A DNA stretch of 64,000 bases from contig OX597833.1 in the NCBI GenBank assembly GCA_951406725.2, positions 25,668,001 to 25,732,000 of the forward strand, in the 5' to 3' direction. This DNA comes from Octopus vulgaris. Taxonomy: Eukaryota. The position numbers were made by a program, and so were the translations under genes. Numbering within the stretch: position 1 is the first letter of the stretch; the number at the start of each line of letters is the position of its first letter. The notes under the pieces are model-generated. The model was not told where the DNA came from. It saw nothing but the letters and a program-made list of their open reading frames with translations, and did no database searches. This document shows, in pieces, positions 14,939-54,319 of the stretch.

Positions 14939-15015
<77 letters not shown>

Positions 15016-15244
15016 AATATAGGATAGAGATTTTCGAAAAAAATTCTATCAATGGCCAGCATATTAAAAATACCTTTAAAGGTTAAATTTATAAGCAATT
15101 TATAAGTAAGTGCAAAAGAAAAAATTTTCTAATGAAAAAATATGCCGAAAATGGACACTACGTCAATAACCATGTAATTTATTACTACAAGTACGTATTT
15201 CAAAGAAAGCCGACAGAAATGTCTTAAAAATTCCGTTATTAACA

Positions 15245-15298
15245 TATCGGACCCGATTTCAGAGTTAGTTCATAAGACCCTTCTCTTCATCAGTGATA
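15245..15298 (-). ncRNA. Type I hammerhead ribozyme motif, slightly decayed, in a (TA)n-flanked ~340-bp insert
   Basis: Minus strand: tatca-CUGAUGA-AGAG...CUCU-GAAA-UCGG-GUC-cgata. Core and stem II intact; A-C mismatch at the first stem I pair. Confidence 0.6.
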
Positions 15299-15352
15299 AA
15301 TGCGGTAAAGAAATATGTGAAATACTTACTTACATCCATGAACTTATAAATT

Positions 15353-15389
<37 letters not shown>

Positions 15390-17722: not shown

Positions 17723-17897
17723 TATATGTATATATATATTTCTTATGTATATATTTCTTAGGCCTCTGGTATTTATAGAGTGTTAAACTTTTTTTGTATG
17801 CAAATTAGGGACTCCTTCATAGAGTAACTGCTGAATTTGTTGAGTATATAAACAGTTTGGCTGGTTGTTACTCAGGAGACTGTCAGAATGCTGTAGA

Positions 17898-17936
17898 CGC
17901 CTCTGATGAGAACCCAGTAAGGTTCGAAAATCGAGG
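17898..17936 (+). ncRNA. Decayed hammerhead ribozyme-like motif
   Basis: CUGAUGA (17903-17909), perfect stem II GAACC/GGUUC, GAAA (17926-17929). Stem III is collapsed, so probably inactive. Confidence 0.5.
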
Positions 17937-18019
17937 AAGATTGTTCATAATTTTTTTTCAGTCCGCAGAGGAATGGTTAAAATTTGTCTTGTTTATAATT
18001 ATACCATATGTTAATTATA

Positions 18020-19671: not shown

Positions 19672-20140
19672 GAATAATTTATTTGTATGATATAAAAATG
19701 CTGAAAAGTTTTTTTAAAAACTTAACAATACAAAGAAGTTAACTGTAAGTTGTAAAGCTAAAAAACGTGTGTGAAAATCCTACATATATATTTCAGTACT
19801 ATCCCCTAGTTCAAGATGAATTCTAAGCATTTGTTTAAATGCTAAAGGTATGCGCTTATAGAACTTTGGTTAACAACCTTCAAAGGAAAAATCTTAACTT
19901 GAGATCTATAAGCGCATAATAACCCTGAAGAGGTACTGACACGTACAGTTAAAAAATGTTACCTTTCATAGCATTTAAACAAATGCTTAGAATTCCTCTT
20001 CAGCTCGGGGATAGTACTGAAAAATATGTGTAGGATTTTCACAATTTTTTTTAGCTTTATAGCTTATAATCAATTTATTTGTATTGTTATGTTTTTCAGA
20101 AAACGCTTCAACATTTTTATATCATACAAATAAATTATTC
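19672..20140. repeat. Fold-back inverted repeat (~170-bp arms) containing a hammerhead-like core with a long stem II insertion
   Basis: 19672-19844 vs 19969-20140 are inverted. CUGAAGA 19925-19931, stem II GGUACU/AGUACU (19932-19937, 20013-20018), GAAA 20019-20022, GUA at 20030-20032. Confidence 0.7.
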
Positions 20141-20149
20141 ATACATTCA

Positions 20150-20215
<66 letters not shown>

Positions 20216-20393
20216 TATATATATATATCGTGACGCATATTTGCCATTTGAATATGGCTAACCCCTAAGGGTGGATGCTACTGTAGTTTGTAGCCCCAGG
20301 AAGATATCTCCTCCAGCTGGCTATAGACACACTATCTGTGTCCTCTCAGTATTTGTGAAGGGGAGTCATCCTCCCCGTCTTCAACTCATGATA

Positions 20394-20438
20394 CACACGG
20401 ACCCGAGTTTCAAGGTGTTTACCTTTCATCAGCGTGTG
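20394..20438 (-). ncRNA. Intact type I hammerhead ribozyme (minus-strand copy)
   Basis: cacacg-CUGAUGA-AAGGU-aaac-ACCUU-GAAA-C-UCGG-GUC-cgugug. Perfect 6-bp stem I, 5-bp stem II, short stem III, GUC cleavage triplet. Confidence 0.9.
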
Positions 20439-20887
20439 ACAATCATGGTTGTCGACGAGAAGTCAGCTCCCTTCACAAATACATATACTTTTTCCAGTGT
20501 CGATTGACACTGATATTGAAAAAGTGAAATCAAACAATGATAAATCTCAGAGCGAGTTATAAACAGTAGCGGTCCGTGTGTATCATGAGTTGAAGACGGG
20601 GAGGATGACTCCCCTTCACAAATACTGAGAGGACACAGATAGTGTGTCTATAGCCAGCTGGAGGAGATATCTTCCTGGGGCTACAAACTACAGTAGCATC
20701 CACCCTTAGGGGTTAGCCATATTCAAATGGCAAATATGCGTCACGATGTGTTACCGCTACTGTTTATAACTCGCTCTAAGATTTATCATTGTTTGATTTC
20801 ACTTTTTCAATATCAGTGTCAATCGACACTGGAAAAAGTATATGTATTTGTGAAGGGAGCTGACTTCTCGTCGACAACCATGATTGT

Positions 20888-20932
20888 CATACGCTGATGA
20901 AAGGTAAACACCTTGAAACTCGGGTCCGTGTG
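20888..20932 (+). ncRNA. Intact type I hammerhead ribozyme (plus-strand copy), predicted cleavage after C20926
   Basis: cauacg-CUGAUGA(20894-20900)-AAGGU-aaac-ACCUU-GAAA(20915-20918)-C-UCGG-GUC-cgugug. Stem I extends through caugau/aucaug and caac/guug. Confidence 0.9.
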
Positions 20933-21142
20933 TATCATGAGTTGAAGACGGGGAGGATGACTCCCGTTCACAAATACTGAGAGGACGCAGATAGTGTGTC
21001 TATGGCCAGCTGGAGGAGATATCTTTCTGGGGCTACAAACTACAGTAGCATCCACCCTTAGGGGTTAGCCATATTCAAATGGCAAATATGTGTCACGATG
21101 TGTTACCGCTACTGTTTTTAACTCGCTCTGAGATTTATCATT

Positions 21143-21198
<56 letters not shown>

Positions 21199-22829
21199 AT
21201 GTATGTATATTTTTATATATACACGGTCTCCTTCTAGGAATTTTACATATGCATTGTTCAACTCGGAACTATAGTAGAAGACACTCTTCCAAGCTGGAGA
21301 ATGAGCTTCTTCCCCAACCAGCCATGACGCCACCTGTGTGTTAAAAATTTAATTTAATTGTTACACCAGTTTTCAGGCAGTTATTCCATAGTGCAATAAA
21401 TAAACAATTCAACACATTTCTAACTCAATGTACCGATCGAATTTTGGTCGTCGTCTTCGAACACATTTCATAAATTATTGTTTTCCATCTCTTGTCTTAA
21501 AGAATATATAACAATCAGTATGCAGCCGCTAGATCGTACGGTCTATTGAGATCAAGAAATGATCTCAGCGTAAATTCCTTCGTGATGCAGTTCATCAATA
21601 AAAAAGCTGCCTTTTTATTTCTGCAATCACAGCTGAGTACTTATAAGGAGCAACAAACTGAGGAATTTTGCTATAATAACGAACACTTCAGTAACCTAAA
21701 GCAAAGTCACGAACGCAGCTACCGATATTATTTTACAGACCAAACTCTATAACATTATTTCAAATCTGTGACTAGTTTTTCTCCAATTTGGCGCTCTCCT
21801 ATTGAAATTGATATCACTCTTTTTCTCTACTTTCATTTTCCTATGATCGGTAATATGAAGCTTTGTTATAATAATATAATTATTACTTGAATCTAAAGTG
21901 TATTTGTCCGCTGTATTTACAGTAAAAGCTACAGAATATAACAGCTTTCATTTGCATATTTCGTTACAATGTACATTCGAATTGTATTCTCACTGATTAC
22001 TTTATACTCAAGAGCCGCTATTGCCATATTGTTTCAAAATCCGCCACTCGATAGAACACCAAAAGCTAAGTATTCTGGGATTATCGTAAAATAGTTCTAC
22101 TGTATAACTTTCTCACTTCTGCTGAAGATATTGTTTTCAGATTTCCATTGAAGTTGCCAGCTGTCATTATTTTACTGAGCAACTACCATTGTTTGGGGAT
22201 AGACATTCAACCTTTTAACTGTGAAATTATATTTCATGGTTATTCCAGTAATAGTGTGAAATATCTACAATAAAAATAAAATACAATTGGTATTTTCTGC
22301 AAGTCACGTTGCCTTAATAAATTTGATATATCACAACAGTAGAAGGTTTCAAACTTGACATTCCTCAACAAGAGATAGATCGGTAGCTAAACTTGCTTTC
22401 CGCTGTTTATGCTAATTAAATTACAAAAGGTTCTTAAGTGACAAGTATACTTATATATGTAAGTTCAAGCTGAGAGAGCATGAAGTTTGGTGAGGTTGAA
22501 CTGACACAGTTAAAATAGTAGCAAACTGAAATTATTCGGCTTTCTAATCAATATACTTGTGGGTCCTGGTTTGTGTAATATACTTTACATACATAAACAC
22601 AATACATACATACATACAGAAGAAGAAGAAGAAGAAGAAGAAGAAAAAGAAGAAGAAAAAGAAGAAGAAGAAGAAGAAGAAGAAGAAGAAGAAAAAGAAG
22701 AAGAAAAAGAAGAAGAAAAATATGTGAGTGGTATGACAGTAGTAGGATGTTGGTGGAACCCCCTTAAATGGTTGAGTGACCTGTTGTAGTTGCCATAGTA
22801 ATGACTGGAATTGTTCTGAATAAAGTCAT

Positions 22830-22980
22830 ATCGTTTTAAATTTTTGCGTTGGTTTTATTGTAAGGCCCTTGTAGTAGTGTCATTTGTGGTAGACGCATTC
22901 AAAAGAGGTTTATATTTTGTGAAGAAATATGACTCTTTGCTAATGCGCTGATTATAGATTTTTTTTTTTTTTCAATTGCC

Positions 22981-23060
<80 letters not shown>

Positions 23061-25500
23061 ATTTCAAGAATTTCAAGCTGGGTTGTTCGTTAGAGGCGCA
23101 AATATCAATGTGTTCGCTGAATGCTATTTTACTGTATTCCAGAATTTGAACTGCATCCTATGTAGAGTCATCCTTTGATGTAAACTGTTTTGGGTTTGGG
23201 CTATGTACGCTCTTGACACCCGGAGCAATTTAATATATATATATATTAGGTTTTCCGAAGCACATGTAAAGTTGTTCTTCACTGTTAAACTTTGGCCCTG
23301 TTTGAAAGAGAACTCCGATCCCTCATTTAGGTTGACACATATACCACAGTTAGGTCTTCCGCATATTTTTATTTACGCCTTCAGTGTTGTTTTAGGAGAC
23401 ATTTCATAGATTTGGATTGCTCTTTAAGATGGTGAGTGTTTGGAGGATTAAATTCATTCTGTGGTCCCTTTTTAATAGAAGAATGTTCTGGAGGATGGTG
23501 CCAAAGACTTCATTGTTAAGGGGTTGTGTGTGGAGATGTATGGTAGGAGTTTGGGTTGTAATTCCTTCTTTAGTTTGGGATGTCTGAGTTCGTGGATGTT
23601 GAGTTGTACGGCACATTGAAAGCCTAAATCAATCAGGCATGGTGGGTAGTTCCTGGTAATGAGTGTGTACTTTAGTTCATGTAGTTGTGTGTCTCTGGTG
23701 CCTGTATTAGAAGTTATAGTACAAATACTTTTTGCTAGGTTGAAGGAGATATTCATTCAAGTGTGTCTGTGGTGGCATGAGTTGAACAGTAGATATTGCT
23801 TGAAGGCTGTGGGTTTTTTGTTGTTGGATTTCTTAATGAGGATGTCGAGTAATTGTAAATTGAATGTTTGTTTATGCAAAAGAATGAAACAGTCATCCAG
23901 ATACCTCTTCCAGTTATTTTCTATGTAGAGGGAGAATGGGATGCAGTATTTTTCTAATACCTTACGATAAAGACTGATTTCTAGACATCCCATGATAAGG
24001 TTAGCAAAGGAGGGTGGGGCATTCTCGTACACATCGCAAGCCCCGATTTTTGTCGATAGAAGTTGTCTTTGAAGACAAAAATGTTATTCTCGAAGGTGAA
24101 TTTTAGCCCTTCGATTAAGATTTCTTTTTGATGTGATGTAGGAGTTCATTGGAGTAATTCTGTAGCCAGAATTGAATTGCCTCTATTCCAAGGCTGTGGT
24201 GGGTATTAGAATAGAGGTTGACTACATCGAAGGATACTAGTAGGGTGTCTTTGTTTATTGTTTTCGGGAGGTAACTGAACATATCTAGGTCGTCCCGTAT
24301 GTAGCTTTTGATATGATTGAGGAATGGTTTTTAAGAGAATATCTAAAATGTTACTGTGGCGGTGGGTTTTGCATGTGGGACCTGTTAATATAGGTCTTAA
24401 TTTGAGATCATTAAGAGTAGGGAACTTGATTATTATATATGTGGCTATCCTGCATGCGTTACTTATTTTCTCACTTTTGTGTATCTTAGGAATACCGTGG
24501 AATTGACTGGATTTACTTTTGAAGTTAGTCATATAATCGTATTCTTGTCGGTGAGCCCTCTCTGTATAAGTATAACATAGTCTTTAGGTTTCTCATTATT
24601 TTCTGCGATCTGTAGCGTTGCACCTTTTCATAATATTTTGTGTCTTCTAATAAGGATAGTACTAGAGTTATATAGCATACTGTGTTAATTAAAACAACTG
24701 CACTCCTTTTCTTAGCCTCTTTGATTGTTATTGTTTTATCATATTTTAATTTGTTCACCTCAGCCCATTCTTTTGTTGCTGAAGTTCGGCTTGTGTTTTT
24801 GTTTGTGTTTATGTTGATATTGGTAATTTGTGATGTATTCACAGAAATGATAAAAAATGTTGTTCTTAGCGTTTGAAGGGGTGTAGTTAATTTTATTTCG
24901 GACTAACGATTCGTCCTCGTAGTATTTGTCGTAATTTTCTACAGAACTACGCAATGTCTACTCTCATTTCGTTGTAGTTGAGGTGTTGGGGGTGGGTGTA
25001 AACTTGACTTCTTTGGAGAGTATGTTGATTTGGTTTGCTGTTCTTTGTGAGTTAGATTGATGATTTTTATCACTTTTGGCTTCCCCTGTCTGTCTGGTAC
25101 TATCTTGTATCTCTGTGTTTGCGTAATGGGTTTAAAAAATGATTGAGGTCATTGGGACGGTAGCTGTTATGAAGTTGTTCCATGTTATTGTGGAGTGCCT
25201 TCTCCCTGTGATTTATGGTGCGGTCTCTTGGAAGGGTATTGAAAAGTGTATCCCTATATCCCATGTTCGGATGTGGTGTTTTAGGGCACCGTCGTTGGTA
25301 ATTATTACGTGTGGTACGGGTTTGTTGCGCATGGTTGCTAAGTGGATTGCTGGAACGAAAATTTCATTGGTAACTCCTTATGGGAGGGAAGTTGTAATGT
25401 CTATCCTCCGGGTAGTGATTTTTCATTTCTCTGATGTTGAGGTACTCCGGACGTTGTTTCGCTGGTGGTTTACGTCTTGTACTCTTTTGTTTTGTTTTTG
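22830..25500 (-). mobile_element. Decayed Penelope-like retroelement (RT, thumb, GIY-YIG), frameshifted
   Basis: ORF fragments FHGIPKIHK...LKLRPIL (24206-24532), PPSFANLIMGCLE...WKRYLDDCFI...KKPT..KQYLLFNSCH (23757-24032) and NISFNLAKSICTI (23472-23756). Near 23100-23290: NFTCASENLIY..CSGC..IAQT..LHQRMTLH..FSEHIDIC (GIY-YIG). Ends approximate. Confidence 0.9.
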
Positions 25501-42719: not shown

Positions 42720-43138
42720 GGCGGCGAGCTGGCAGAATCGTTAGCACGCCGGGCGAAATGCTTAGCCGTATTTCGTCTGCCGTTACGTTCTGAGTTCAAA
42801 TTTCGCCGAGGTCGACTTTGCCTTTCATCTTTTCGGGGTTGATAAATTTAGTACAAGTTACGTACTGGGGTTGCTGTAATCGACTTAATTCGTTTGTCTG
42901 TCCTTGTTTGTCCCCTCTATGTTTAGCTCCTTGTGGGTAATAAAGAAACAGGTATTTCGTCTGCCGCTACGTTCTGAATTCAAATTCCGCCGAGGTCGAC
43001 TTTGCCTTTCATCATTTTGGGGTCGATTAAATAATTACCAGTTATGCACAGGGGTCGATATAATCGACTTAATTCGTTTGTCTGTCCTTGTTTGTCCTCT
43101 GTGTTTAGACCCTTGTGGGTAGTAAAGAAATAGGTATT
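42720..43138 (+). mobile_element. SINE family A with tandemly duplicated body
   Basis: The block gtatttcgtctgccg...gtcgactttgcctttcatc...cttgtgggta..aaagaaa.aggt occurs twice. Confidence 0.85.
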
Positions 43139-44879
43139 TATAACGGCTCTTTGCAGTATGATTTCAGATCGCTTCGTGGTGATATTCAGCAACAGTACTT
43201 TAGTGGTAAACTTTATGTATCGTCCTTCTGCGGTTACTAATTATATGCGTGTCTAGGGTGGTCGGCTGGCAGACTCGGAGGAGCAGATTTTGTGCGGTTT
43301 TTATTCCGATTCTTAAGCTTCTCAGATCGAATCCCACCCTGAACTACACGAACGTAAACTTTATCTGTCGCTAGGTTCAATTCCATCATCATCTCCTATG
43401 AGAGAAGTGTTAAATCGAGTCCATTTTACTACAAGTATTCGACCCAGGTTATCTACATTCCTCCTACCCTACCACCGGTCTGGAAGGCCTGAAAGGGATC
43501 ATGAGCCCCGCAATTTCAAGTGACTAAGTAATGAAAAAGGAACCATGACCATCATAGTCATTGAAACAATTGATGTTAGGTTCATATATCTCTGACATCG
43601 ACAGATTTTCTCAGATTTTCAAGAACTCGGACCGATTTAATCGCCGGATTCTTTTCGCAAAATGTTGCCTTGTCCTGGTATCAGAAAACTTGGTTGTGCA
43701 TTCAGATTAAATAACTTTAAACGAAATTATTAAATGTTATGCAAAAGCGTTATCTCCCTTGACAGTTATCACCACACCTAAGATGTTTTATATCAGAAAT
43801 GCTCCTTAATGTGTACTTCACAAAGCATTGGAAAGAACGATCTCTGTATATTCCCGTTATTGTTTGTTTGCTATAGATATATCTGACAGATTTCAACAGA
43901 ACTTAGATAAGGTGAATGAATGCAGTAAGTCGCTCTAGTCGTGACCTTCCTCTCTTGTCTTGCTTATTCAGGCAGTCTGTATCTAAAACTATATTATCCA
44001 AATTATCATAAACAACTACATCAACAATCATAAGATGCAATGCGTAAATCTCTAGATGCTTGTGTAATGTGCGAGAGATTTCAACTACATTTCTTTCATG
44101 TCATACCTTGTCTTAATGCGGAGAAAAAATGAGATAATATAGTTCTAGATACGCTATTCATCAATCAAAGGACTAGATAATCACATCTGGGATGCTTTGT
44201 TCACAGCTTTGTCGAATCTGCGCCCAAACAGGAGGGAAATGAAAAATGAAATTATCAGTAACAAAGTCATGGATGAGTGCCAGCGGATACTTAGATACTT
44301 CTAGATATAGAACGTCTGAAATGAAAATGGGATGGTTAATGCTTGGACATTACTCTTGGGTTAATCTAGGTATTAAGGCAATAATAACAACTACAAGCCA
44401 GAATTGCGGTGCACTCATGTAACCTGGCTAACCAATTCTATTTTTCACAAGTTTGCCTCAAATTTAAGTAGGTTTCAGTCTTCCTGTAATTCAAAACAAG
44501 AAAGAGAAGAACCCATTAGACAATGTAGTCTTAGACAGTCCATGTTTAAAATATACACGAAAAAAGTGTCTGTCTTACAGAGAAGAGATTCTGTGGATTT
44601 TCAAAGGATACTAAGCTCTTAGCTTTATTTGTAACCTTCTCGCTGAGGCAGGACATTGTTCTCATCCTGGCAGTGAGTTTCTTTTACAAATTACAATCTG
44701 TATAGGGAAAGGCTCAAGACATCTTCATAAAGTTTCCTCAAGGCGACCATTCACACTTCCAATTCCGACATTTAAATCTGCATACGTGCTTTTTTTTTAT
44801 TTTGGTTATTTGAGGTGCATTGTGATTTTTGTGATGGGTAGTGATTGTTGTGGTTGTAGTGCTGAGAGATAACAAATTC

Positions 44880-50917: not shown

Positions 50918-53900
50918 AGGACACTAATAGCTCATGGTAGACCAAAAGAAAACAGCAACAATGTAGACGAAATAGGTAATAGTAGCACAGAAGCCAGTGT
51001 ACAAGCGGCAAATCAACTTCCCAATGGGGAAGTTAAACAAAGAATAGCGAAGACGAGAGATTTGAAAAAGAGGAGAACGTAGACCTTCCTCAAGAAAACC
51101 AAAATAGATATGACATAGAATTTGAGGTGAATAATAGAGAAAAGATTATGGAAGCAAAAGTGGACATTATGAGAGAACTCGGCAAGATTGAGCTCACTGA
51201 CATGGTTAATAGAGAACCACTACCAAAGTTTTCAAATGGCACAAGAAATAACAACACAATCATGACATATAACGTTGCCCTAGGACAGATCTTAAGAAAT
51301 AAGGGGAATGATTTGACAACCTTAAATAATCTCATTTATTCCACTGCTAAAGTAGTAACTACCCAACTAGGTATTAAGATGACAAAGAAAAAGGCCAGGC
51401 ATGTCAATGAACCTCCTAAGTGGAAAGTAGCGATACAAAAAGAGATTGAATCTCTGCGGGCGGATGTTTCAGTTCTCGATGAGCTTGCTAGAGGAGTGAA
51501 TATTAAGCCGAGAAAAGCTAGAAAAATGAAGCAAAAATATAAAATCAAAGATCTCATAAACCTCCCTGCAACTAAGGAACTGTTGAAACAACGGATACAG
51601 TTGAAAGCTCAACGGCTTAGAAGGTATGACAAAAGAAACAAATTTTATCGACAAAATAAATTTTTTAAGACGGATGCAAAGAAATTTTATAGGGAAATTG
51701 GCAAAAATAAAATACACATAGAAGATCCACCTAAGATTGAGGAAGTGGAGGAGTTCTGGAAGAAGGTATGGAGCAACGAAAAAGAGTTTAATGCTGAGGC
51801 TGACTGGATAGAACGTGAGAAAGAGAGACTGGATGAACTTGAAGAACAGAAATGGGAAGCAATAGGAATAGAGGAGCTAAGGTGTGTCCTTAGGAAGGCT
51901 CATAAATGGAAAACCCCAGGACTGGATCGGATCCCTAACTTCTGGCTGAATTGTTTGACAGAGGTACACGAACATCTCGCTGCATCTCTGTCTGATGTCA
52001 TTCAGAACCCAGAGCAAATACCTGCTTGGCTGACTGAAGGAACCACCTACCTATTACCTAAAACCGAAGACACAAAAAACCCAAAGAATTACCGGCCAAT
52101 AACATGTCTCAACACCACCTACAAAATCCTCACATCCATAATAACGGAGAGAATGTACGCTTTCCTTGAACAAAATTCTATCCTTCCACAAGCTCAAAAA
52201 GGTTGTAAAAGAAACTCTTATGGGTGCAAAGACCAATTGCTCATAAACAGAATGATTGTAGAGAATTGCCGGAGCAAAAACAAAAACCTGAGTATGGCAT
52301 GGATAGACTACAGGAAAGCGTATGACAGTGTCCCACATAAATGGATACTCAAGGCCCTTGAGATATACAAGATCTCCCCTGTCGTCTCAAAATTCTTAGA
52401 GAATAGCATGACCATGTGGAACACACGTCTCTTTCTAAGCCATAGTAATGGGATGAGCCAGTCCAACAGCATCAACATCAAACGAGGCATCTTTCAAGGT
52501 GACTCCCTCTCTCCATTACTTTTTTGCATGGCACTGATCCCACTCTCAAACAAATTGGATAGTGCCAGATATGGGTACAAAGTTTTTAGCAAGTTAATAA
52601 ACCACCTTTTTTATATGGACGATCTAAAGCTGTTTGCCAAGAATGACCAAGAGCTAGAAGGGCTGCTAACAACTGTTAAAGAGTTTAGCAATGATATCGG
52701 AATGGATTTTGGCCTTGATAAGTGTGCTAAAGCAACTTTTGTAAGAGGCAAGCTCAGGCAAACAGCTTCTGTTAAATTAGATATTGACACTACCATCAAG
52801 GAACTTGACCCACAAGAAAGCTACAAATACCTAGGAATCAACGAAGGAGATGGTATACATCATGCTACTATGAAGGAAAAAATAAGAAAGGAGTACTATA
52901 GGAGAATAAGGCTTGTACTGAAGACTGAACTCAACTCCAAAAATTGCATTGAGGCCATTAACACCCTGGCACTTCCAGTAGTCCAGTACAGTTTTAACAT
53001 CATTAACTGGAACCTTACGGAACTCCAACGCTTGGACAGGAAGACAAGAAAGTTACTGACATCCAGGAGCATGCACCACCCTAAGGCAGATGTAGACCGC
53101 TTGTACCTACCTAGAAGCAGCGGGGGGAGAGGAATGATGCAATTGGAGCTGTGCTATAAGACCTCTACTGTAGGAATGAACAGGTACCTATCTAGTACAA
53201 ACGACTGGATGCTGCGACTTGTGTGTGAACACGAAAGCAGCAAAAAGCTGCATTCTATTGTCAAGGAAGCTTATAAGTTCGAAAGGGAACTAGGCATTAA
53301 CCTTGAATCAGGTGAAGAGCCAGAAACCACTGCTACCAAGCAAGCAAAGCGAATCAGGCAGACTGCAAAAAAGAATGGGCAGAATCAAATTGAGAGGCGG
53401 TGGAGCCAGAAGCCCCTGCATGGACAATACATTCTCCGAAGCCAAAATGCTGATGTAGACCAAGCAACAACCCATCAGTGGCTGAAGAGTTCTGGATTGA
53501 AAGCAGAGACTGAAGGCTTCATAATGGCAGCACAAGATCAAAGCTTGTTTACCAGAAATTACCAGGCTAACGTTCTCCGAAACGGTACTGACCCTAAATG
53601 CAGATTCTGTGACACATTTGACGAAACAATAGACCATCTCGTTTCGGGATGTCCTGTGCTGACACCAAACGAATACAAAAATCGCCACGATAGGGTAGGA
53701 CAGTATATACATTGGAAGATATGTAAACACTACAAATCCGACACTCCTGCTAACTGGTATGAACACCATCCTCAGCCAGTTGTTGAAGGTAAAGATGTCA
53801 CCATCCTCTGGGATTTTCCAGTCAACACTGACAGAACGATCAAGGCTAATCGACCAGACATAATTGTTAAAGACAGGGAAGAAAATACCTGCAGACTAAT

Positions 53901-54319
53901 AGAAGTAAGCGTCCCCACTGATAAAAATGTATCTGTCAAGGAATTTGACAAACTTAGTAAATATAAGGACCTGGAAATCGAAATACAGAGGATGTGGAAT
54001 CTTAAAACAAAAACTGTTCCTGTTATTGTAGGTGCCCTAGGTATGATAAAAAAGGGATGTCAGAAACACCTAGACAATATCCCTGGAAAACCATGTCTCA
54101 AGGAAATCCAAAAGATTGTGCTAACAAGTACTGCCCACATCCTTAGAAAAACCCTATCAATGTAAATATTTGTGTTTGTATTACATGGAGATATTTCTCT
54201 ACTTCCCCTCCCCAAGCTTTCAGCTATATTTCAACAACTCTTAACCTTCACTTGCCCTAGGGCGCTGGGTGTGCCCCGGCAGGTGATTGCATCAAACATG
54301 CAGATTAAAAGTAAATGAC
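50918..54319 (+). mobile_element. R4/Dong-clade site-specific non-LTR retrotransposon, probably 5'-truncated, inserted in (AAT)n
   Basis: Single long ORF with RT and C-terminal RLE, a ~155-nt 3' UTR ending directly in (AAT)n, and a 5' junction at (AAT)n. Confidence 0.9.
51127..54165 (+). CDS. Non-LTR retrotransposon polyprotein: reverse transcriptase, CCHC zinc knuckle, restriction-like endonuclease (R4/Dong type)
   Basis: Motifs YRPITCLNTTYKILT, AWIDYRKAYDSVPH, GIFQGDSLSPLLF, HLFYMDDLKL, YKYLG, CRFC...ETIDHLVSGC, RHD and RPDIIV..D...LIEVSVP...K..KY. The frame is open from 51037, so the true start is uncertain and there is a likely upstream frameshift. Confidence 0.93.
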   Translation: MNNREKIMEAKVDIMRELGKIELTDMVNREPLPKFSNGTRNNNTIMTYNVALGQILRNKGNDLTTLNNLIYSTAKVVTTQLGIKMTKKKARHVNEPPKWKVAIQKEIESLRADVSVLDELARGVNIKPRKARKMKQKYKIKDLINLPATKELLKQRIQLKAQRLRRYDKRNKFYRQNKFFKTDAKKFYREIGKNKIHIEDPPKIEEVEEFWKKVWSNEKEFNAEADWIEREKERLDELEEQKWEAIGIEELRCVLRKAHKWKTPGLDRIPNFWLNCLTEVHEHLAASLSDVIQNPEQIPAWLTEGTTYLLPKTEDTKNPKNYRPITCLNTTYKILTSIITERMYAFLEQNSILPQAQKGCKRNSYGCKDQLLINRMIVENCRSKNKNLSMAWIDYRKAYDSVPHKWILKALEIYKISPVVSKFLENSMTMWNTRLFLSHSNGMSQSNSINIKRGIFQGDSLSPLLFCMALIPLSNKLDSARYGYKVFSKLINHLFYMDDLKLFAKNDQELEGLLTTVKEFSNDIGMDFGLDKCAKATFVRGKLRQTASVKLDIDTTIKELDPQESYKYLGINEGDGIHHATMKEKIRKEYYRRIRLVLKTELNSKNCIEAINTLALPVVQYSFNIINWNLTELQRLDRKTRKLLTSRSMHHPKADVDRLYLPRSSGGRGMMQLELCYKTSTVGMNRYLSSTNDWMLRLVCEHESSKKLHSIVKEAYKFERELGINLESGEEPETTATKQAKRIRQTAKKNGQNQIERRWSQKPLHGQYILRSQNADVDQATTHQWLKSSGLKAETEGFIMAAQDQSLFTRNYQANVLRNGTDPKCRFCDTFDETIDHLVSGCPVLTPNEYKNRHDRVGQYIHWKICKHYKSDTPANWYEHHPQPVVEGKDVTILWDFPVNTDRTIKANRPDIIVKDREENTCRLIEVSVPTDKNVSVKEFDKLSKYKDLEIEIQRMWNLKTKTVPVIVGALGMIKKGCQKHLDNIPGKPCLKEIQKIVLTSTAHILRKTLSM

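Follow-up and report, generated by a model that had tools for sequence, protein, structure and literature searches.

A probable non-LTR retrozyme family in Octopus vulgaris, with a dimer-type hammerhead motif, likely moved by Penelope-like elements and targeted at a fixed site by an L1-group LINE

The DNA analysed here (the window, a stretch of 64,000 nt from Octopus vulgaris) contains at 20227..21142 a 916-nt insertion without assigned strand, which consists of an inverted and a forward arm lying head-to-head, with both 3' ends pointing outward into (TA)n. Its repeat unit, of 352 nt and 42.9% GC, is numbered U1-352, with U1 at 20794 on the forward arm. The inverted arm (20227..20573, minus strand) has 347 nt, made of U312-352 and U1-306, and stops at 20227 on a fixed 3' end that we call A (U306), while the forward arm (20571..21142, plus strand) has 572 nt, made of U130-352 and U1-349, and stops at 21142 on a second fixed 3' end, B (U349); the arms overlap by 3 nt (20571-20573). 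Between end A (21099) and end B (21142) lies a 43-nt 'tail' (21100..21142, plus strand), which may correspond to the interval between two reverse-transcription start sites. The initial annotation had placed the element in (TA)n, and TA runs were indeed found on both flanks (20152..20228 and 21142..21221). Its 352-nt period is borne out by a direct repeat (20571-20790 and 20923-21142, 97% identical) and its inverted copy by the match of 20227-20573 to 20753-21099 (98% identical). The head-to-tail repetition that it described holds at this period, yet the forward arm amounts to 1.6 units, with just 220 nt duplicated. As it had also claimed, no protein is apparent: no ORF of at least 110 aa overlaps the element, and no match to a protein of Penelope-like elements (PLEs) was found in the unit.

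Each strand carries one intact type I hammerhead motif, in agreement with the earlier description of both copies and of their number. On the plus strand (20888..20932), it comprises a 6-bp stem I, a CUGAUGA core that starts at 20894 (U101), a 5-bp stem II and GAAA, with a cut predicted after C20926 (U133); in the inverted arm (20394..20438, minus strand), the cut is predicted 3' of position 20400 on the minus strand. Helix III has 2 bp closed by a 4-nt loop, and helix and loop together (20918..20925, plus strand) form an 8-nt self-complementary palindrome, which is predicted to pair between two hammerheads with a duplex energy of -8.9 kcal/mol. Stem I is prolonged by an imperfect rod (20845..20979, plus strand, approximate limits of a predicted fold). 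The description of the whole 352-nt unit as rod-like was therefore overstated, since it applies to these ~135 nt and gives way elsewhere to branched hairpins. The linear unit folds far better than shuffles (z = -5.95), and so does the circular monomer, whose folding had been proposed as a check (z = -6.7, 65% paired). A further proposed check, by Rfam, went the other way: no hammerhead family was matched even at E <= 1, a scan that returned 12 weak matches, mostly of miRNA models to TA runs and none reaching the gathering score, so the ribozyme call rests on motif and covariation.

Covariation was assessed in 15 hand-picked relatives that are 70-95% alike, an alignment in which related rows can inflate the counts. 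In these rows, 91% of cells pair and changes on both sides are found at 8 of 20 pairs, a value as high as this being reached by 0 of 500 shuffles, with 0-2 in slid controls. Core pair C3-G8 is replaced by U3-A8 in three rows, and the loop III palindrome is maintained through double changes. In a wider set, the core motif is kept in 85 of 96 distinct main-family copies. Together with the palindromic helix III, the covariation, including the switch from C3-G8 to U3-A8, suggests that this hammerhead depends on dimer formation and that cutting likely takes place in the dimer; a minimal helix III layout has been reported to give poor cleavage in monomeric and good cleavage in dimeric form (PMC4209133). 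Modelling points the same way, with two unit copies predicted to pair via the palindrome. In the best predicted fold of the monomer (-15.0 kcal/mol; a hammerhead fold limited to stems I-III gives -5.5 kcal/mol), the helix III loop pairs with part of the catalytic core, and a transcript of the whole insert is predicted to fold back on itself and bury the motif. Two considerations count against ribozyme activity: (i) stem II opens with an A-U pair where G10.1-C11.1 is usual, and these two positions do not pair in 8 of the 15 relatives, and (ii) only one of nine predicted frog retrozyme dimers is reported to cleave in vitro (bioRxiv 10.64898/2026.07.22.740005).

The genome searched (2.8 Gb in 227 contigs) holds a large dispersed family, as had been predicted, according to both DNA and pattern searches. 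A DNA search, in which 40 of 2,665 candidates were scored, gave pieces 92-100% identical to the query; two hammerhead variants have 44 and 119 exact matches, and a conserved 32-nt core pattern has 3,236 (reversed control, 0), a count that reflects a 32-place core common to related families and insertions that can each hold several matches. This list contains runs of two and three matches spaced 352-354 nt apart. The source copies with several ribozymes that the initial annotation expected to lie elsewhere do exist: 9 of 85 distinct elements (at least 88% identity, chosen for a full unit or ribozyme, three of them segmental duplicates) have two hammerhead regions on one strand, and two intact same-strand cores are present in 3 of 22 elements sampled regardless of ribozyme, two of which look like copies of each other. 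No LTR layout was found among the architectures of the 85 elements. At L005/L010, the 3' end is followed by a short tandem array in which the final ~24 nt of the unit recur. Contigs of four runs, which we guess to be RNA, cover the unit and are uninformative on strand, ends and circles. A unit of 352 nt that is below 50% GC, non-coding, equipped with a type I hammerhead and present in tandem copies supports the earlier reading as a non-LTR retrozyme.

How such units reach new sites is suggested by the shape of the insertions. Across the 85 elements, 3' ends fall at U306 (A) or at U349/352 (B), which are 43-46 nt apart, and usually abut (TA)n, which also makes up most flanks; 5' ends are scattered. 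A head-to-head layout is seen in 48 elements. When both outer ends are fixed (35 two-armed copies), they are A and B in 34 cases, B and B in one and never A and A (binomial P ~1e-9 for the A+B excess); in the remaining 13 of the 48 two-armed copies, one or both ends lie elsewhere. Coding PLEs of the same genome show the same ends, target and head-to-head layout. Hallmarks reported for PLEs include an inverted truncated copy, a one-sided tail and a bias for microsatellites (PMC8557442), and the tail is described as lying between two internal reverse-transcription start sites (PMC11167929). The octopus element resembles PLEs and PAc, as described in these two sources, in having a pair of fixed 3' ends, just one of which bears a tail, as well as an inverted 5'-truncated copy, a microsatellite target and a hammerhead upstream of the start sites. 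It differs by the absence of an ORF and by a tail of 43-46 nt, against the 30-40 nt quoted for PLEs, and whereas the start sites of PAc in vitro are reported not to differ between strands, the two ends here come from different sites in 34 of 35 copies. PLEs have been proposed as mobilisers of retrozymes (PMC7229834; bioRxiv 10.64898/2026.07.22.740005; PMC7761336), an idea that the initial annotation took up; a passage of PMC7761336 states that no conserved motif points to a mobilising partner. In the accounts cited, the link consisted of co-occurrence and likeness to pLTRs; two fixed 3' ends, head-to-head arms and a TA target now add sequence evidence in the form of an insertion footprint.

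The footprint also bears on the RNA template. A cleaved linear monomer would limit arms to 173 or 216-219 nt, ending at U134. The predicted cleavage site is crossed by 101 of 132 arms, a share that is inflated by the choice of elements with a full unit or ribozyme, and the longest arm has 823 nt, which rules out the linear monomer and points to a circle or an uncleaved multimer as template. We favour a circle, as a reading of these sequences. The strongest alternative, which we consider possible though rather unlikely, is a non-autonomous PLE copied from uncleaved multimers, the hammerhead being a leftover or regulatory and no circle being formed. PAc inserts from uncleaved RNA in vitro, where its hammerhead is reported not to be needed (PMC11167929), many relatives have an imperfect closing pair in stem II, and the longest arm amounts to only ~2.3 units. 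Nor do 5' ends cluster at the cleavage site: 7 of 132 fall in U128-139 where ~4.5 are expected, which leaves the genome without a direct trace of cutting. The forward arm of the 20227-21142 insertion starts no more than 4 nt from this site. What tells against uncleaved multimers is that selection on the ribozyme fold is indicated by compensatory changes, which affect the core pair, both of stems I and II and the palindrome of helix III, and that arms of more than one unit persist in several subfamilies despite 5' truncation at each round, a loss of length that a circle would restore. A private variant found in three pieces of L078, on both strands, likewise speaks against it. More generally, pieces diverge by 1.8-2.0% within a locus and by 3.7% between loci, sites diagnostic of subfamilies agree in 95% of within-locus as against 63% of between-locus comparisons, and locus-private variants in pairwise comparison are shared in 12 cases and unshared in 189. 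This likeness fits a single RNA having served both strands; gene conversion between inverted arms could be another source of it.

A search for the autonomous partner using GIY-YIG returned 6,136 candidates, of which 150 were scored and 48 loci fetched, yielding several PLE families. None of the 48 has ends in common with the unit, no autonomous PLE sharing sequence with it was found among 64 loci bearing PLE proteins, and none of 22 elements in a core-pattern sample has the unit contiguous with a PLE ORF. These results weigh on a second alternative, in which the unit is a mere terminal repeat (pLTR) of a coding PLE and the copies are its 5'-truncated ends, which we regard as improbable. It would account for the ends, target and layout shared with coding PLEs of this genome, frog retrozymes are described as resembling pLTRs (bioRxiv 10.64898/2026.07.22.740005), and the fetched loci represent a small part of the GIY-YIG candidates. 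However, arms longer than one unit return from U1 to U352 and do not run into an ORF, and no junction between unit and ORF free of microsatellite was seen in the 64 PLE-bearing loci, which upholds the view that the unit is not the terminal part of a coding PLE. Unit-like stretches near PLE ORFs (L202, L198, L113/L211, L114/L212, L117/L213, L214 and L305) proved to be separate insertions behind microsatellite runs, and a loose contig end considered as a possible PLE body was traced to a single non-coding locus.

One PLE family of this genome (L193-L199) is young, with open frames of 781 codons at many loci; it has two 3' ends of its own, ~30 nt apart, and its terminal repeat carries a hammerhead-like variant with U3-A8. 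This family is a candidate enzyme source for the retrozyme. The coding PLEs examined in this genome have no sequence in common with the unit. A decayed PLE ORF in the window (22894-25056, minus strand), whose pieces are 27-72% identical to the 781-codon family, was set aside as a partner, being unlinked to the retrozyme insertion.

Other repeats in the window deserve mention. A ~340-nt repeat at 15015-15355 (minus strand), between TA runs, has a type I hammerhead-like core at 15293 with a minimal helix III. It is unrelated to the 352-nt unit and folds no better than shuffles, has relatives at 70-84% in L114/L084, L174 and L280/L110, two of which are head-to-head, and is probably another retrozyme or PLE-end family. 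A stretch at 17770-18012 (plus strand) that ends at a TA run contains a hammerhead-like core at 17903 whose 5-bp stem II is perfect and whose helix III and stem I are disrupted; no relative of it was found among the fetched loci. Adjoining the TA run of the retrozyme insertion is an inverted repeat (19672-20140) with arms 86-88% complementary; near 19925 it contains what remains of a decayed core-like motif, and it may be an ancient head-to-head insertion of PLE type. Further downstream lie two tandem 184-nt units (42768-43139), which resemble a SINE common in the genome and have similar tandem counterparts in L213, and a 1,042-codon open frame (51037-54165, plus strand) with reverse transcriptase motifs and a C-terminal cysteine-histidine region, which we take to be akin to R4/Dong-type non-LTR elements.

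The least expected part of this analysis is a LINE that uses the retrozyme as its target, which as a pattern is well supported. It was first seen at two loci where the unit halts at U94 and continues into a common sequence. This sequence is a 5.3-kb LINE, after whose 3' end the unit resumes at U75. ORF1 encodes a zinc knuckle (CCHC) and ORF2 an AP endonuclease, a reverse transcriptase and a C-terminal zinc finger (Pfam PF00098, PF03372, PF00078 and PF13966); ORF2 is open over 1,146 codons in L118. The best match to a solved structure is human L1 ORF2p (E 5e-64), and an L1-group affinity is indicated by this match and by the domains. We call the LINE Tx1-like, an assumption based on domain layout and target specificity; look-ups by protein name returned no name for its clade. 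Its insertion point, U74/75, lies 26 nt upstream of the core of the hammerhead, and every junction seen has the sense of the hammerhead and lacks poly(A). In the window, the LINE is absent and both copies of the target (U75-94), which at occupied loci elsewhere is duplicated either side of it, are empty (20868..20887 on the plus strand; 20439..20458 on the minus strand, in the inverted arm). In four runs holding both sides, no bridging contig was listed for the LINE-retrozyme junction with 31 nt on each side.

Queries made of LINE sequence only were used against selection for retrozyme junctions. In two pattern censuses, the LINE 3' end is followed by the retrozyme in 19 of 21 and in 24 of 28 cases, the second census being read by eye; two more 3' ends in the latter abut a target remnant and the 5' end of a related LINE. 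A LINE-only DNA query covering 30 loci found 20 followed by the retrozyme, one by a target copy and a second LINE, seven by a different shared target and two by other sequence. The target duplication is ~15-20 nt long and reaches at least 13 nt in 29 of the 30 loci with both LINE ends detected; 19 of these 30 were first found by a junction query (as were the loci behind 21 of the 32 rows of the duplication table), and 10 of the 11 others carry the duplication. It often repeats a locus-private variant on both sides (L113, L114, L116 and L120), as expected if the local target was duplicated. The LINE 5' end was reached in 15 of 20 further loci fetched by the 3' end, of which four came from the first subfamily and 16 from the 28 second-census loci.

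LINE hosts come from five families or more, with 65-97% likeness to the unit. The LINEs diverge by 2.1% and their hosts by 8.8% among A/B hosts (n = 18, r = 0.06), and by 2.5% and 17.8% among C/D hosts (n = 20, r = 0.06), distances for which 48 of 54 rows were kept and host labels assigned by rough motif rules. LINEs ~2% apart in hosts 9-18% apart therefore inserted independently, one at a time, into copies that had already diverged. This is the main difficulty for a very improbable third alternative, in which the LINE mobilises the retrozyme or both move as one composite: the hosts are 4-7 times more diverged than the resident LINEs, which largely refutes it. The tight physical link, the junction without poly(A), a few composite-looking loci (L266 and L250) and the broad sorting of LINE subfamilies with host families (overall r = 0.64) speak for a composite. 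Set against them, most retrozyme copies are LINE-free (~50 LINE junctions seen versus 3,236 core matches), the retrozyme ends in (TA)n with the PLE footprint, and the LINE splits the unit in register, with target duplication, the upstream half-unit being still in register even at 5'-truncated LINE copies (L150, L153 and L253). A single co-transposed clade of LINE-bearing hosts was also rejected, since the variant that they share is mostly LINE-free and distances do not track. Finally, a DNA transposon, be it a MITE or a foldback element, is hardly credible, and so is an assembly artefact: the outer ends do resemble long inverted repeats in a TA target, but they differ by 43-46 nt, an asymmetry that refutes this explanation, inner junctions vary freely, many copies are one-armed, and hundreds of dispersed copies differ in sequence.

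Several loci depart from the simple pattern. A sister branch of the LINE (L154 and L157-L162, mostly on G000 C27 and C2) occupies the different shared target, which lies in clustered repeats, at times arranged in tandem beside a related LINE. In a tree with midpoint rooting only, this branch (support of 100/100) falls within the copies that target the retrozyme, a position that suggests it switched target recently. In L266 (G000:C7:109530600-109540500), a head-to-head structure of 9 kb with outer ends A and B contains LINE sequence in both of its arms, and in L267, the LINE target site marks the start of the opposite arm. These two loci and L250 look like rearranged LINE-retrozyme composites, the LINE and the retrozyme of L266 and L250 appearing to have moved or been rearranged together. 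In L122, the ~75 nt immediately upstream of the LINE show host family B variants, with family A on either flank, as if, in this single case, the LINE RNA had brought upstream target from its source locus.

The LINE is likely a parasite of a parasite. A more tentative idea, on the doubtful side in our estimation, is that it borrows host hammerheads to make its RNA ends, with target-matching sequence at both ends guiding exact insertion. Transcribed from the host repeat, the LINE would then live off the RNA machinery of the retrozyme: the downstream ribozyme, left intact by the target duplication, would cut 59 nt past the LINE end, the upstream ribozyme, where present, would make the 5' end of the LINE RNA, and target-matching ends would perhaps close a LINE-bearing circle. 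Same-sense junctions, 3' ends on the same base without poly(A), the proportion of copies reaching the 5' end (15 of 20) and the upstream tract of L122 hint at such borrowing; an AATAAA at the LINE end, mutations in several downstream cores and the many hosts without an upstream ribozyme speak against it.

How does this compare with known systems? Metazoan non-LTR retrozymes, as described in PMC7229834, have units of 220-245 nt in coral, 350-390 nt in mussel and 331/353 nt in axolotl, and the octopus family resembles them in its short non-coding unit below 50% GC with one type I hammerhead, and also in its dimers and trimers, self-paired fold, thousands of copies and the presence of PLEs in the same genome. 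Its 352 nt lie within the 150-450 bp given for a retrozyme unit. Two consecutive same-strand hammerheads, by which bioRxiv 10.64898/2026.07.22.740005 defines an 'active' copy, are not found at the 20227-21142 locus, with its one per strand. Unlike the long arrays described for metazoan retrozymes, copies here are short, dispersed, head-to-head insertions, and they are targeted by a LINE. In helix III they match the dimer-dependent type reported from amphibians; for most invertebrate retrozymes, by contrast, efficient cleavage of the monomer is described. No cephalopod retrozyme was found in the mostly open-access literature searched, where the main text of bioRxiv 10.64898/2026.07.22.740005 covers vertebrates, three insects and one coral and PMC10886601 mentions octopus solely in a reference; the supplement of PMC7229834, outside this scope, may list cephalopods. 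It is possible that the retrozyme or the LINE already has an entry in Repbase or Dfam. L1-Tx1 and Penelope families are reported to be abundant in coleoids (PMC8967140).

Fixed targets within other repeats have been described for LINEs of the Tx1 clade (PMC4494074): Tx1 inserts into Tx1D, Tx1-Mar into Mariner-N4_AMi and Keno into U2 genes, and Tx1-8_Crp and Tx1-4_AMi target LTR elements. The octopus LINE resembles these in its L1-group ORFs, its fixed site in another repeat, its target duplication and its tandem insertions with one target copy between them (L124/L153). What sets it apart from the cases described there is a target that is a ribozyme-bearing retroelement, with a site 26 nt upstream of the core and in the same sense. 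In the mostly open-access literature searched, we found no LINE targeting a hammerhead repeat.

On these sequences, the 352-nt unit most probably defines a new retrozyme family of the non-LTR kind, with a dimer-type hammerhead, likely moved by PLEs and used as a fixed-site target by an L1-group LINE. In the life cycle that we propose, loci with two hammerheads on one strand would be transcribed, their ribozymes would pair through the helix III palindrome and excise a 352-nt monomer, and a host ligase would close it into a circle, in which the core may be held in an inactive fold. A PLE protein would nick both strands of a TA run and reverse transcription would be primed at two sites of the RNA, U306 and U349/352, one for each DNA strand. 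The result would be two 5'-truncated head-to-head arms able to pass the cleavage site and to exceed one unit. The 20227-21142 locus would be such a daughter copy and, with one ribozyme per strand, a predicted dead end. The LINE would insert into existing copies by its own target-primed reverse transcription.

By itself, the retrozyme adds one more family to a known class; it is the LINE target and the footprint that raise its interest. The enzyme and the template of retrozyme movement in animals are stated to be open questions (PMC7229834; PMC7761336; bioRxiv 10.64898/2026.07.22.740005), and a PLE-type footprint of two start sites, one per strand, makes the question of the mover testable with (i) a defined 352-nt RNA, (ii) two predicted start sites, (iii) a TA target and (iv) young 781-codon PLE families in the same genome. 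The LINE adds a new class of target for sequence-specific LINEs and a natural endonuclease with a predicted specificity of ~20 nt, for which a close sister branch with a changed target is at hand. PLE, retrozyme and LINE would thus make up a three-tier system and, if it were true that the LINE uses the ribozyme of its host, a retrotransposon would here have its RNA processed by a ribozyme that its own target encodes.
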